Counted from the first letter of the stretch, positions 8,739-57,747 are shown. The stretch: 58,169 bases of DNA from Candidatus Xenobia bacterium (GCA_045863235.1 BTUM01000051.1:1-58169); one strand, 5' to 3'. Notes: a model not told the origin generated them from the letters alone. Numbers and translations: made by a program.

Positions 8739-8771
8739 AAGCTATCCGCACCGGCTGAAATAAACCTGAAA
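8739..8771 (-). promoter_or_regulatory. Recurrent promoter box TTTCAG-N5-TTTCAG-N10-TAGCTT, 6 nt before GTG 8732
   Basis: Read directly; same architecture at six other sites. Confidence 0.75.
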
Positions 8772-8828
8772 CCAGACTCTTGACCGGGATCAATGCAGGC
8801 GGCCTCGACCGGGTTTATCCTGAAGCCT

Positions 8829-11588
8829 GTGCAGGGGGTAAGCGCCCGGCTTTGCAGCTTTCAACTCAACGGCGAGCAGGTCCAGGTGGCCGTTCCGGCC
8901 CACTGGACCTTGCTCGAGGCGTTGCGCTACCGTCTGGGCCTGACCGGCACCAAGCAAGGCTGCGACAAGGGCGACTGCGGCGCCTGCACGGTGCGCCTGG
9001 ATGGCCAGCCCGTGCTCAGCTGCCTGACCCTGGCGAGCCAGGTGGAGGGCCGACGGGTCGACACGGTGGAGGGCCTGGGCGGCGACCACCCTCTGCAGCG
9101 CGCCTTCGAGGCCTGCGGAGCCGCTCAGTGCGGCTTCTGCACCCCCGGGATGCTGATGAGCGCGGCCGCCTTCCTCGCAAGCGAACCTGCCGAGGTCACG
9201 CGCGAGAGCATCTCCCAGGCGCTTTCGGGCAACCTGTGCCGCTGCACCGGCTACACCAAGATCATCGAAGCGGTGGAGCAGGCCTGGCAGGCCAGGCCGG
9301 ACGGGCCCAACCCCGGGAGCGGGGTGGGGCAGCGCCACCGCAAACTGGACGGCCGCGAGAAGGTCACCGGGGCGGCCCGGTTCACCGACGACCTCAGCCT
9401 GCCGCGCATGCTGCACTGCAAGATCCTGCGCTCGCCTCACGCCCACGCCCCCATCCTGAAGGTGGACGCGAGCCAGGCCCTGGCCCTGGAGGGCGTGCTG
9501 GCGGTGGTGACCGGCGCCGACTTCCCCATCCCCTACGGCATCCTCCCCTGGACCCGGGACGAGCACGCCCTGTGCCTGGAGAAGGCCCGCTACGTGGGGG
9601 ACGCGGTGGCGGCGGTGGCGGCCCTGGACGAGGAGACGGCCAACCGGGCCCTGTCGCTGATCGAGGTGGACTACGAGGTGCTGTGCGCCCTGCTCGACCC
9701 GCAAGAGGCCCTGCAGAAACGCGACGTGCCAATTCACGAGAAGGGCAACGTGTCCAAGGAGGTGGAGCTCGAGTTCGGAGAGGTGGACGCCTGCCTGGCT
9801 CGGGCCGACCTGGTGGTGGAGGGTGACTACTCCTTCCACGGCAGCACCCACGCCGCTCTCGAGCCCCACTGCGCCCTGGCCCAATACGATGGCCTCTTGA
9901 CCGTCTGGTCGGCCACCCAGGTGCCCCACTACCTGCACCGCGAGCTCTCCCGCGTGCTCGAGCTGCCCACCCATCGCATCCGGGTGATCGCCACCCACGT
10001 GGGCGGCGCCTTCGGGGGCAAGAGCGAGCCCTTCGACCTGGAGTTCGTGGTGGCCCGGCTGGCCATGCTGACCGGCCGTCCGGTGAAGTGCCTCTATACC
10101 CGCGAGGAGGTCTTCCTGGCCCACCGCGGCCGTCACCCCTGCCAGATGACCATGCGACTCGGCCTGAGCCGGGAAGGACGCATTCTGGGCCTGGACGCGC
10201 GCAGTCTGCTGGACGGAGGGGCTTACTCCTCCTTCGGGCTGGTGACCACCTACTACAGCGGCCAGCTGCTGGGCTCGCCCTACCAGATGGAGAGCTATCG
10301 CTTTCACTCCACCCGGGTCTTCACCAACAAGCCGGCCTGCGGCCCCAAACGGGGCCACGGCTCGGTGCAGCCGCGCTTTGCCATGGAGATCCAGCTCGAC
10401 AAGGCGGCCCGCGCGCTGGGGATCGATCCCATCGAGCTGCGGCGACGCAACTTCATCGGGGCGGACACGCGCACCATCAATGAGTTCCAGCTGGGCGCCA
10501 ACGGCTTTCTCGAGTGCCTCGCGCGCGTCGAGGAGGCCTCGGGATGGAAGGAGCGCTCCGGCAGACTTCCGCCCGGCCGCGGGCTGGGGGTGGCCGGCAG
10601 CACCTACATATCGGGCACCAACTACTGCATCTACCCCAGCGAGCTTCCCCAGTCGGGGGTGCAGATCTGCCTCGACCGCTCGGGCCGGGCGCGCGTGTTT
10701 GCCGGCGTCTCGGATATCGGCCAGGGCGCCGCCACGGTGCTGGCCGTGGTCACCTGCGAGGAGCTGGGGGTGGAGCTTTCGGACGTGCGCGTGGTCACCG
10801 CCGACACCGACCTCTGCCCGGTCGACCTGGGGGCCTACTCCTCGCGGGTCACGCTCATGGCCGGCCAGGCCTGCCTGATGGCCGCCCGCGACCTGGGCGG
10901 AAAAGTGCGCCGGGTGGTGGCCGAGCGCTGGCAGTGCGCCCCCGGCCAGGTGGTGCTGGCTGGCCGCCGGGCCCAGCGGCTGGACGACCCGGAGATCTTC
11001 ATGAGCATCCAGGAGGCCTTCGTGCTGGCCGAGGAGGCCCTGGGTACGCTGGGCAGCGTGGGCCACTACCAGAGCCCTCGCACGGGCGTTCACGGAGACT
11101 ACCGCGGGGCCACCATCGGGGCCTCCCCGGCTTACTCCTACACCGCCCACGTGGCCGAGGTAGAGGTGGATCGGGAGACCGGCCAGGTGCAGCTGATTCA
11201 GATCTGGGCCGCCCACGACTGCGGCCGGGCCCTCTCGCCCCTGCTGGTAGAGGGCCAGATCGAGGGCTCGGTGTACATGGGGGCCGCCGAAGCCGTGCTC
11301 GAGCACCACGAAGTGGATGAGCGCGGCCTGCTGAAGGCTACCTCCCTGCTCGACTACCGCCTGCCCACGGCGCTGGATGTGCCCGCCATCGAGGCGATCA
11401 TCGTGGAGGAGGCCGATTTCCGCGGCCCCTACGGGGCCAAGGAAGCCGGCGAGGGCCCCCTGCACCCGGCCCTGCCGGCCATCGCCAACGCCATCTTCGA
11501 CGCCGTGGGAGTGCGCATCGACCAGCTCCCGATCACTCCCGAAAAAGTCCTGGCGGCTCTGCGCGCCCGCGAGACCGCCCCGTGCTGA
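8829..11588 (+). CDS. Xanthine dehydrogenase-family molybdoenzyme with fused 2x[2Fe-2S] and Mo subunits (4-hydroxybenzoyl-CoA reductase HcrC/HcrA-like)
   Basis: GCDKGDCGAC, QCGFCTPG, CRCTGY; GGAFGGK, VSDIGQG, EGQIEG, GAKEAGE; GTG 8829 lies 7 nt after TATCCT (alternative start 8793). Confidence 0.9.
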   Translation: MQGVSARLCSFQLNGEQVQVAVPAHWTLLEALRYRLGLTGTKQGCDKGDCGACTVRLDGQPVLSCLTLASQVEGRRVDTVEGLGGDHPLQRAFEACGAAQCGFCTPGMLMSAAAFLASEPAEVTRESISQALSGNLCRCTGYTKIIEAVEQAWQARPDGPNPGSGVGQRHRKLDGREKVTGAARFTDDLSLPRMLHCKILRSPHAHAPILKVDASQALALEGVLAVVTGADFPIPYGILPWTRDEHALCLEKARYVGDAVAAVAALDEETANRALSLIEVDYEVLCALLDPQEALQKRDVPIHEKGNVSKEVELEFGEVDACLARADLVVEGDYSFHGSTHAALEPHCALAQYDGLLTVWSATQVPHYLHRELSRVLELPTHRIRVIATHVGGAFGGKSEPFDLEFVVARLAMLTGRPVKCLYTREEVFLAHRGRHPCQMTMRLGLSREGRILGLDARSLLDGGAYSSFGLVTTYYSGQLLGSPYQMESYRFHSTRVFTNKPACGPKRGHGSVQPRFAMEIQLDKAARALGIDPIELRRRNFIGADTRTINEFQLGANGFLECLARVEEASGWKERSGRLPPGRGLGVAGSTYISGTNYCIYPSELPQSGVQICLDRSGRARVFAGVSDIGQGAATVLAVVTCEELGVELSDVRVVTADTDLCPVDLGAYSSRVTLMAGQACLMAARDLGGKVRRVVAERWQCAPGQVVLAGRRAQRLDDPEIFMSIQEAFVLAEEALGTLGSVGHYQSPRTGVHGDYRGATIGASPAYSYTAHVAEVEVDRETGQVQLIQIWAAHDCGRALSPLLVEGQIEGSVYMGAAEAVLEHHEVDERGLLKATSLLDYRLPTALDVPAIEAIIVEEADFRGPYGAKEAGEGPLHPALPAIANAIFDAVGVRIDQLPITPEKVLAALRARETAPC

Positions 11589-56734: not shown

Positions 56735-57706
56735 TCAGGACCAGGACTGATAGCCGGCCCGCGCTCCGGCGGCGCCGCCAACCACCATGGCCCCCACGAA
56801 CTCGCGGTGCTTGTTGGCAACCGGATCGCCCAGGTCCTGACCGGCTTGGTTCAACTTCTCCACGCTGGCTTCCACCCGCTCGTGGGCAGATTTGGCACCC
56901 TTGAGCGAGGCCAGCAGGGCCACTCCAGCTCCCACGGCCGCCGCCGGAGCGCCCAGGACCAGTGCTCCCAAGCAGGCCGCCACGGCCACCGAGCTCGCGC
57001 CCAGCAACCAGGGCGAGGCCAGTTTGCCCTGGCCCAGAGCCATGCTCAGGCCATCCACCACTGCCCCCGGCACCAGCAAAGCGCCGGTGGCTCCCCCGGC
57101 CAGGCGTGCTCCCCACCCCTGAGGGTTCTCGCCCTCCTTGAGGACGGCCGGCAACATCTGGCCTCCTTCCCACAAACCGGCGGCATCGCCGCGCCCCTCC
57201 GAGTAGCCCACCGCGATGCCGTCCACCACGGCTGTCCTGACTCCGTGGCCGGCTCCCTGGAAGGCCCGCTCCAACAGGCTGCCCTCCGGCTTGTGAGCGG
57301 CCAGATCCTGAGCCAGCTTGAGGTTGGTCCCGCCCCGGCTGACGATGTAGGCCCCCAGGCCGCCCAGCACGCCCTTGGTAAGGAAGGTCTGCAGCATGTT
57401 GCCCTGGGTGCCCAGGGCCAGCGTCAGGCCCACCGCCACCTGCACGCCCGAGGCGATATCGAGCAGGCGCGCGAGCCTCTTCTCGTCCATCCCCCCGCTG
57501 ACCCCGTGAGCCACGCCGGCCACCAGGCAGGGCAAGAACGAGGCCGGAACTTTGGTGAAGGCCTGCACGGTGCCGCACACCTTCTCCAGGGCCACCCGGG
57601 CGAAGGGCGGCTGGTCAGGCTCGGGGGCGGGCCCGTCCCCTGCCGGCAGAGCGGCGGCCGAGGCCTGGTGAGGCCGGGTGGCGGGCAGGGAGCTGGAGAG
57701 TATCAT
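56735..57706 (-). CDS. Hypothetical Gly/Ala-rich membrane protein with N-terminal leader
   Basis: Several hydrophobic GxxxG segments; codon bias. Confidence 0.75.
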   Translation of the reverse strand: MILSSSLPATRPHQASAAALPAGDGPAPEPDQPPFARVALEKVCGTVQAFTKVPASFLPCLVAGVAHGVSGGMDEKRLARLLDIASGVQVAVGLTLALGTQGNMLQTFLTKGVLGGLGAYIVSRGGTNLKLAQDLAAHKPEGSLLERAFQGAGHGVRTAVVDGIAVGYSEGRGDAAGLWEGGQMLPAVLKEGENPQGWGARLAGGATGALLVPGAVVDGLSMALGQGKLASPWLLGASSVAVAACLGALVLGAPAAAVGAGVALLASLKGAKSAHERVEASVEKLNQAGQDLGDPVANKHREFVGAMVVGGAAGARAGYQSWS

Positions 57707-57714
57707 TCGATCGC

Positions 57715-57747
57715 AGAGTAACCGGGCTGTCTGAAAGGAACTGGAAA
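57715..57747 (-). promoter_or_regulatory. Recurrent promoter box TTTCCA-N5-TTTCAG-N10-TACTCT, 8 nt before ATG 57706
   Basis: Read directly. Confidence 0.72.

Follow-up and report, generated by a model that had tools for sequence, protein, structure and literature searches.

We describe here a promoter class that recurs along the window, by which we mean the whole 58,169-nucleotide (nt) stretch of DNA analysed, contig C51 (BTUM01000051.1) of the Candidatus Xenobia bacterium assembly GCA_045863235.1 (8.36 Mb, 166 contigs, 65.8% G+C, 97.6% complete; hereafter G000), and throughout the genome to which the window belongs. Its genome-wide consensus is TTTCAG-N5-TTTCAG-N10-TAnnCT. The class is real and confirmed, with about 350–430 copies per genome, and from its sequence it appears to be lineage-specific, with two TTTCAG repeats lying 11 bp apart and 10 bp before the TAnnCT box, in the place of a -35 box. 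The best explanation as a whole, to which we give about even chances, is that of a tandem-repeat activator promoter class driving a co-regulated set of proteins that share an N-terminal leader and are possibly exported.

In the window, the pattern TTTCAR-N5-TTTBAG-N10-TANNNT has 4 exact matches, and 0 were found in any of 100 dinucleotide-preserving shuffles; allowing one mismatch increased the number to 6, with 0 expected. Across the genome, the exact pattern occurs 33 times, compared to 0 for the reversed control. Scanning with a 33-nt weight matrix gave 488 sites at a threshold of 14, 429 at 16 and 354 at 20, versus 64, 31 and 2, respectively, in the reversed sequence. Note that the matrix was iterated from the exact copies and is circular by construction; the reversed-sequence control is not. 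The density of sites was 7 scoring at least 24 in the 58-kb window, and in the genome 429 scoring at least 16 in 8.36 Mb, that is, about 1 per 19.5 kb.

The spacing of the element was found to be exact. The two hexamers are separated by N5 in 79 cases, versus 2 in the control, and all the other spacers from 0 to 15 give 0–7. From TTT[CG]AG to TANNNT, N10 occurs 164 times versus 13, and N21, which corresponds to the distal repeat, 72 times versus 19; the rest of the distances between 4 and 27 are at background. Around the 164 strict proximal sites, a match of at least 4/6 to TTTCAG lies 11 bp upstream in 126, with 13 or fewer at any other offset, and no third repeat was seen upstream at the offsets scanned. 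Comparison of the flanks revealed that the columns outside the 33 nt are without information; thus, the motif is not a mobile or dispersed repeat element. An earlier note on the window had described the exact spacing of the repeated element and proposed that it belongs to a large regulon, and both points are supported by these counts.

The same genome also carries canonical promoters. TTGAC-N17/18-TANNNT was found 114 times versus 35 and 86 times versus 38 in the control, and TTG-N19-TATAAT 22 times versus 1. When the 200 nt upstream of 61 transfer RNA (tRNA) genes were analysed, a canonical TTGACA-type pattern was present in 27/61, versus 0.6% of random 200-mers, and a TTTCAG-class site preceded just 1/61. 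This agrees with the remark in the earlier note that the motif was not seen before the housekeeping genes checked. The -10 boxes set the two classes apart as well: 107/164 of the TTTCAG-class sites have C as the fifth base and 15/164 have A, whereas A (TATAAT-like) takes this position in 56/114 of the canonical ones. In the TTTCAG class, moreover, the bases two to three nt before the -10 box (-15 to -13) are rich in G.

The six full copies in the window score 24.0–32.4 with the matrix, which was derived from the G000 genome. Four are exact and were found where the earlier note had placed them. The copy at 8739..8771(-), TTTCAG-N5-TTTCAG-N10-TAGCTT (score 32.1), precedes a gene at 7380..8732(-) for a 450-amino-acid (aa) PQQ_2/BamB-like beta-propeller with the leader VRIEALTLPSFSLPRSAARK, whose GTG start lies 6 nt past the -10 box. 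The copy at 31284..31316(+) (score 25.3) precedes a gene at 31324..36402(+), which starts 7 nt past the -10 box and encodes a 1692-aa protein without a Pfam family and with the N-terminus MIDTRLSLLHPATLPQKA. At 42299..42331(+) (score 24.5), the copy stands before a 365-aa glycerophosphodiester phosphodiesterase (GDPD) gene at 42339..43436(+), with a GTG start 7 nt past the -10 box; this copy is kept in two relatives of the same genus (G046 and G106) and is missing at this place in a third (G054). The fourth, at 43928..43960(+) (score 24.0), drives a 395-aa PD40 beta-propeller gene at 44025..45212(+) that has the leader MLIQPNVALASTAPLAAASRSR and a 64-nt 5' untranslated region (UTR), with GGGGG before the ATG.

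The two copies reported with one mismatch each were also borne out, and in both of them the mismatch is distal. The first, at 45214..45246(+) (score 32.4), precedes a 64-aa open reading frame (ORF) without a family at 45256..45450(+), which starts 9 nt past the -10 box and has a second paralogue on contig C27. The other, at 57715..57747(-) (score 26.5), lies before a gene at 56735..57706(-) that starts 8 nt past the -10 box and encodes a 323-aa protein without a family and with the leader MILSSSLPATRPHQASAAALPAG. The copy at 54812..54844(-), which had been described as a proximal half, does consist of the proximal hexamer and TAGGCT only, and its score of 26.7 makes it a strong site; it precedes a 397-aa WD40 propeller gene at 53611..54804(-), with the leader MRIQPLTLFALPVSSVSRPE...ERVDLRL and a start 7 nt past the -10 box. 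Thus, 6/7 strong copies lie 6–9 nt before the start codon, as had been claimed, the exception being 43928 at 64 nt. The supposed weak N11 variant at 36951..36973(-) scores below 10 with the matrix and had to be given up; it is not counted as a member.

This placement relative to the start codon extends to the genome. At 404/429 sites scoring at least 16, a coding-like ORF is present on the same strand within 400 nt downstream, and at 250/429 a start codon (195 ATG, 53 GTG and 2 TTG) lies 5–10 nt past the -10 box. The distances peak at 6 nt (121 sites) and 7 nt (61 sites); those of 2–4 and 12–17 nt hold 0–4 sites each. Since the usual transcription start is some 7 nt beyond the -10 box, the +1 position would fall on the A or G of the start codon. 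More than half of the regulon mRNAs are therefore predicted to be leaderless. One public RNA run contains 62% of the sampled words of window positions 42000–47000, these runs being short low-depth contigs whose ends are not listed.

The products share an unusual N-terminus. In the 246 products of at least 100 aa that belong to the leaderless class, this leader has the form M-[I/Q/L/N/R]-[I/V], with Pro frequent at position 5, Ala, Pro, Ser, Arg and Leu abundant, and few acidic residues up to about residue 20. In many leader-bearing products a motif resembling DRVELS, DRFEPS or DQVxLS follows at about residues 25–45. Position 3 is I or V in 57% of the leaderless class (n=246), 31% of the regulon products with a 5' UTR (n=118) and 17% of a Shine-Dalgarno control (n=277). 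A Sec-like hydrophobic 12-mer within the first 45 aa was found in 2%, 11% and 18% of the same three sets, respectively. In support of what had been noticed in the window, the products thus have unusual leaders (57% versus 17% for position 3, and 2% versus 18% for the Sec-like segment). Judged by these sequence statistics, the leader is common to the products, is not a Sec signal peptide and is secretion-signal-like.

The G+C content at the three codon positions of the leader is 0.62/0.50/0.74 in codons 2–11 and about 0.72/0.50/0.83 later, and no in-frame stops are present, which argues that the leader is translated and is not mis-called GC-rich DNA. The link between leader and promoter is also seen when one starts from the peptide: the motif D[RQ][VF]x[LPIV][SG] occurs within the first 60 aa of 42 ORFs, versus 4 for the reversed peptide, and a promoter site is present upstream of 17/42. 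Transmembrane (TM)-like segments were found in 103/246 products, the first of them beginning at residues 30–120 in 67 and before residue 30 in 4.

The regulon encodes mostly orphan proteins. For 94/140 sampled products, no Pfam family was found (E<=1e-5). The others include 11 PQQ_2/BamB-like propellers, 2 endonuclease I proteins, SLT and NlpC/P60 proteins, peptidases of the M48, C11 and C1 families, and InhA-like MAM, VWA and Macro+HD proteins. Monogalactosyldiacylglycerol (MGDG) synthases, acyltransferases, a caleosin, a histidine phosphatase, a PilZ protein, a flavin adenine dinucleotide (FAD) synthase, a helicase and an EEP phosphoesterase were also present. The window contributes PQQ_2, WD40 and PD40 propellers, the GDPD enzyme and three orphans. 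In both endonuclease I proteins, whose domain is usually extracytoplasmic, the leader occupies the position of the signal peptide. The SLT (L010:13894-14652) and NlpC/P60 (L010:17306-18016) genes, on contig C61 of G000, encode proteins whose first 60 or so residues are of low complexity and rich in Met, Gln and Gly, MMPGMDMMGGMGGMFIMMQLMQMM...

Within the bacterial class of the window, the promoter class is conserved in three families (f1, f3 and f4), and in a fourth (f2) its counts are close to background. When the proximal half plus the -10 box was counted in 151 genomes of the phylum, strong enrichment was found only in the genus of the window, and a moderate one in some sister genera: G000 has 164 versus 13, and four relatives of the same genus 80–192 versus 10–25. 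The genomes counted include G127, flagged as unpublished, which gave a single row at background level and on which none of our claims depends. With the 33-nt pattern, the counts were 13–45 versus 0 in the control for genus g1, 42 and 45 versus 0 for g6, 18–25 versus 0–2 for g5 and 5–17 versus 0–1 for g4. Family f4 gave 1–7 versus 0, family f5 1 versus 0, and the 19 genomes of family f2, when summed, 12 versus 1.

Orthologous places were informative on what is kept. At that of site 43928, the hexamers and the -10 box are retained in G046 and G106 (about 88% DNA identity) and in G054 (about 73%); the spacer, the 5' UTR and the leader diverge among the four species of the genus. Upstream of the PD40 orthologue we found TTTCAG-N5-TTTTTG-N10-TAGTCT-N6-ATG in G060 (genus g6) and TTTCTA-N5-TTTCAG-N10-TAGTAT in G066 (genus g4). 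In G060, which belongs to family f3, an open start lies 3–9 nt past the -10 box in 13/20 sampled sites, and many products have a similar leader. The PD40 orthologues of all the families, f2 included, retain a leader ending in DRVxL.

Four f2 orthologues of the PD40 gene (L137, L139, L140 and L141, from G098, G076, G080 and G070) have a different conserved element upstream, TTCACA-N6-TTGCAC-N19/20-TACAAT, 12 nt before the ATG. This element may be what corresponds in f2 to the TTTCAG promoter.

How would such a promoter work? A head-to-tail pair of winged-helix activator domains of the OmpR/PhoB type would bind the TTTCAG repeats, overlapping the -35 region, and would recruit RNA polymerase; transcription would then begin about 7 nt after the -10 box. 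The two identical units of the element face the same side of the helix; the proximal unit is the more strongly conserved, and the distal one can be missing (as at 54812), an arrangement that fits a head-to-tail winged-helix dimer. One activator would turn on the whole set together, and the regulon would amount to a large arsenal of proteins that are co-regulated and either exported or inserted into the membrane. G000 encodes 14 regulators of the OmpR type and 20 sigma-70-family factors, besides 12 long proteins that match Trans_reg_C weakly.

In this proposal the leader would act as a targeting signal, most likely to a flagellin-less type III export apparatus. G000 carries one flagellar-type type III cluster, on contig C27 at about 56000–80000 (L001 and L002), with genes for FlgB/C, FliE/F/G/H/I/J/K, an FlgE-like protein, FliM/N/P/Q, FlhB and FlhA. 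In profile searches of G000, flagellin (PF00669), the type VI secretion protein VipB, a phage sheath and VirB4 were not found, and the flagellar-type system is the only one-step secretion machine found in this genome. FHIPEP, the Pfam family of the export gate FlhA, is present in 44/44 genomes of the class and flagellin in 10/44; among the rows listed, the flagellin-bearing genomes also carry a second full-length FlhA. From this gene content, the G000 system looks like a class-wide, flagellin-less apparatus. Given a shared leader that is not of the Sec type and a lone type III machine, we infer that the products are possibly type III cargo.

Stand-alone relatives of the export gate were also seen. 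Five G000 proteins combine the C-terminal (cytoplasmic docking) domain of FlhA with unrelated N-terminal parts (C80:28174-29157, C3:27006-27977, C1:377670-378254, C106:14902-15816 and C107:14606-15352). In the relatives, FHIPEP matches number 2 to 19 per genome, and the number climbs with genome size. An FlhA-C paralogue (L175:2974-4257(-)) lies directly downstream of the EEP phosphoesterase gene (L175:4339-5355(-); contig C3 of G000), which has a TTTCAG-class promoter and whose product continues after the leader with a lipoprotein-like hydrophobic segment (…LALATAC…).

Beside the type III cluster there are three identical genes for an 81-aa protein (L001:11987-12232, 12351-12596 and 12807-13052, all on the minus strand; contig C27 of G000). 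Each copy has a different promoter, one of the TTTCAG class and two canonical. AlphaFold2 predicts a single long helix, which is too simple for a fold search. The nearest language-model clusters of the protein include HrpA-pilin (0.91 and 0.90; 180 and 174 shared features) and HrpE-like (0.88) ones; a sequence search of PDB gave nothing below E=0.47, and NCBIfam nothing above cut-off. On these model-derived similarities the protein may be Hrp-pilin-like, which we take as a lead only. In its most extended form, the proposal would be that, in the large-genome lineages of this class, several hundred mostly orphan proteins, doubly marked by an activator-dependent, largely leaderless promoter and an export leader, are fired together via the flagellin-less type III machine, with a fibre perhaps made of the 81-aa Hrp-pilin-like protein; we offer this tentatively and consider it doubtful in full.

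Several observations weigh against an activator-driven, exported set. The type III link is circumstantial, and the flgB operon has no upstream site on the same strand scoring at least 10. FHIPEP is found in 117/121 genomes of the phylum and is thus so nearly phylum-wide that its presence does not discriminate. The leader is absent from the rod and hook proteins, the N-termini of FlgB, FlgC, FliE, the FlgE-like protein and FliK being unlike it. In family f2 the type III system is the same and orthologues bear the leader, yet the promoter is a different one. The leader could also be the cytoplasmic tail of membrane proteins, since 103/246 products have TM-like segments, 67 of them from residues 30–120. 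As regards the regulator, the 4 kb preceding each of 26 Trans_reg_C and 20 sigma loci were searched for matrix sites, and a strong same-strand site was found at 4 kb or less only for a regulator on contig C28 and two sigma-factor genes (on C2 and C50), all of them behind at least one other gene. The C28 response regulator, which lies behind a 134-aa leader protein, was rejected as the activator: its orthologues (at least 72% identity) are confined to genus g1, and the motif spans three families. A recognisable DNA-binding protein was found in 0/140 sampled regulon products. Finally, the distinct -10 consensus (TAnnCT, with the G-rich positions at -15 to -13) could point to a dedicated sigma factor instead.

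One alternative accepts the promoter class as real and denies that the leader is an export signal. The regulon would then supply cytoplasmic and membrane proteins for development or for a response to stress, and their N-terminal tail would serve for docking, regulated proteolysis or localisation. In support of this, 143/246 products are without a TM-like segment and only 2% have a Sec-like N-terminus, and in 67/246 the leader precedes the first TM-like segment, a layout like that of membrane proteins whose tail lies in the cytoplasm. Some products (MGDG synthase, acyltransferases, FAD synthase and a helicase) are enzymes typical of the cytoplasm, and the type III operon is not co-regulated. 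However, domains that are normally extracytoplasmic bear the leader instead of a signal peptide, most clearly in the two endonuclease I proteins; PQQ_2/BamB-like propellers and an InhA-like protease are also in the regulon, and SLT and NlpC/P60 have their Met/Gln/Gly-rich N-termini instead. We regard this alternative as possible but somewhat unlikely.

Another possibility could be that a dedicated alternative sigma factor, perhaps with a partner, reads TAnnCT plus the proximal TTTCAG without a separate activator, the set being a sigma regulon like those of flagellar class 3 or sporulation. The fifth base of the -10 box fits this idea (C in 107/164, versus A in 56/114 canonical promoters of the same genome), as do the 20 sigma-70-family proteins encoded and the number of promoters, about 400 being the size of a sigma regulon. 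Region 4 of the sigma-70 family spans spacers of roughly 12–19 bp, however, and those observed here, 10 and 21 bp, are outside its reach. In addition, two identical repeats that keep an 11-bp register exactly, and of which the distal one is optional, are what marks binding by tandem protomers, and the motif is unlike the consensus of sigma-28 (FliA), which is TAAA-N15-GCCGATAA. A dedicated sigma factor in place of an activator seems to us unlikely.

The element could also be a diverged Pho box, read by a PhoB orthologue in the phosphate-starvation (Pho) regulon of this lineage. Its geometry is the same as that of the Escherichia coli Pho box, an 18-bp tandem repeat 10 bp before the -10 box, and GDPD, endonuclease I, the histidine phosphatase, the EEP phosphoesterase and the MGDG synthases would fit phosphorus scavenging or lipid remodelling. 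But PstS (PF12849) and PhoU (PF01895) were not found in the 8.4-Mb, 97.6% complete G000, and both were detected in 13/14 control genomes, so this is not a classical Pho regulon. Furthermore, about 400 promoters, two thirds of them before proteins without a family, far exceed any direct PhoB regulon known to us, and a Pho response gives no reason for a leader common to the proteins; this explanation is very improbable. That the class is the general housekeeping promoter of the lineage, or a dispersed mobile repeat carrying a promoter, is scarcely credible: its strict counts are comparable to those of the canonical TTGAC class (164 versus 114), but the tRNA genes use the canonical class (27/61, versus 1/61 for TTTCAG) and TTG-N19-TATAAT stands at 22 versus 1; moreover, there is no conservation beyond the 33 nt, and orthologous sites keep only the hexamers and the -10 box.

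Known systems resemble the TTTCAG class in part. The E. coli Pho box consists of direct repeats with an 11-bp period and the consensus CTGTCAT, placed 10 bp before the -10 box of promoters without a -35 box. The TTTCAG class has likewise 11-bp-period repeats that end 10 bp before the -10 box, no -35 box and a better conserved proximal repeat; the earlier note was right that the geometry is alike and the sequence (TTTCAG, not CTGTCAT-like) is not. Unlike the E. coli Pho system, it comprises some 400 sites in a genome where neither pstS nor phoU was found, and most of its transcripts are predicted to be leaderless. The SARP (Streptomyces antibiotic regulatory protein) activators of actinomycetes bind heptamers that recur every 11 bp and stand 8 bp from the -10 box. 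As in SARP promoters, direct repeats of this period replace the -35 box here, and weak Trans_reg_C matches occur in the 12 long G000 proteins; the -10 box lies, however, 10 bp away instead of 8, and SARPs are known to control single gene clusters, not hundreds of promoters. The middle promoters of phage T4 combine a MotA box with TAnnnT, and, like the TTTCAG class, they pair a -10 box with an element whose centre is near -25 to -30 and can do without a -35 box. The TTTCAG class differs in being chromosomal, conserved in multiple families and a tandem repeat, and we know of no AsiA/MotA-like system in this lineage.

Effector regulons are also marked by one cis element, as occurs with the hrp box of HrpL in Pseudomonas syringae, the PIP box of HrpX in Xanthomonas and the ExsA sites of Pseudomonas aeruginosa, and the tandem-repeat site bound by PmrA keeps a constant distance to the -10 box. 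As in the hrp box, PIP box and PmrA regulons, one element marks here many diverse, mostly orphan proteins with a signal-like terminus. The differences are that the putative export machine would be a flagellar-type, flagellin-less type III system and not an injectisome or Dot/Icm, that the set is several times larger, and that the apparatus genes are without the element. A further parallel is PhoP of Mycobacterium tuberculosis, a member of the OmpR/PhoB family, which, according to the accessible part of the source, binds direct repeats with the consensus AC-K-K-K-Y-A-R-C, one footprinted repeat being TGTTTCAGC (PMC3413638). The consensus of its DR1/DR2 repeats embraces TTTCAG(C); in that part of the article, however, the repeat spacing is variable (1–5 bp) and the promoter position is not fixed, in a different phylum, whereas here both are exact (PMC3413638). 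PhoB, the SARPs and PhoP are thereby three precedents for the mode of binding proposed above.

To our knowledge, nothing is known of the transcription signals of this candidate phylum. A tandem-repeat, activator-type promoter that marks a set of proteins is a known kind of system; its scale is unusual here, and a second tag is present at the protein level. The class provides a testable promoter grammar for the phylum, in which a compact 33-nt promoter of the activator type would place the mRNA start on the start codon, and a regulon of about 400 transcription units, conserved over three families, can be defined from sequence alone. It singles out hundreds of uncharacterised proteins with an N-terminal tag, for which the flagellin-less type III system is a possible route. 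If that route were true, this would be among the largest co-regulated secretion repertoires known, in an organism from sludge and bioreactor metagenomes, and a new, very large effector system in a phylum suspected to be predatory or host-interacting, with promoter and leader together listing all the cargo. The exact register also makes the cis element a handy bait for its regulator. In the accessible portions of the literature searched, which include PMC9259500 and PMC11484240, neither the motif nor leaderless promoters nor a set of type III cargo or effectors was found described for this phylum. For a sister family, a paper in Nature from 2022 proposes a predatory way of life and reports a screen for secretion systems and flagella, as stated in the available part of that work (PMC9259500).

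Some further genes deserve mention. The IMPDH encoded in the window, compared with public genome contigs in a collection that does not contain the genome's own records, has its best named hits (64–70%) in Vulcanimicrobiota, Chloroflexota and unnamed MAGs, which is not decisive for the taxonomy. An 825-aa fusion of a YidD-like protein and a C11 peptidase, encoded at L026:1220-3694(-) on contig C7 of G000, stands behind a TTTCAG-class promoter and is thus a member of the regulon. The small ORF of the window (45256-45450(+)) and its paralogue at C27:16952-17155 form a family of 64/67-aa proteins that sits behind the two highest-scoring promoters. This family has two paralogues per genome, in this genus only, and resembles no known family; three species share the protein at 100% identity, compared to 94% for the genes next to it. 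It was considered as a master or secreted regulator and was dropped because of this genus-specific distribution, which cannot account for a motif found at the level of the class. Adjoining the 64-aa ORF, at window positions 45545-47467(-), are a 426-aa PilX_N/DUF7305 pseudopilin-like gene and its 209-aa neighbour without a family.

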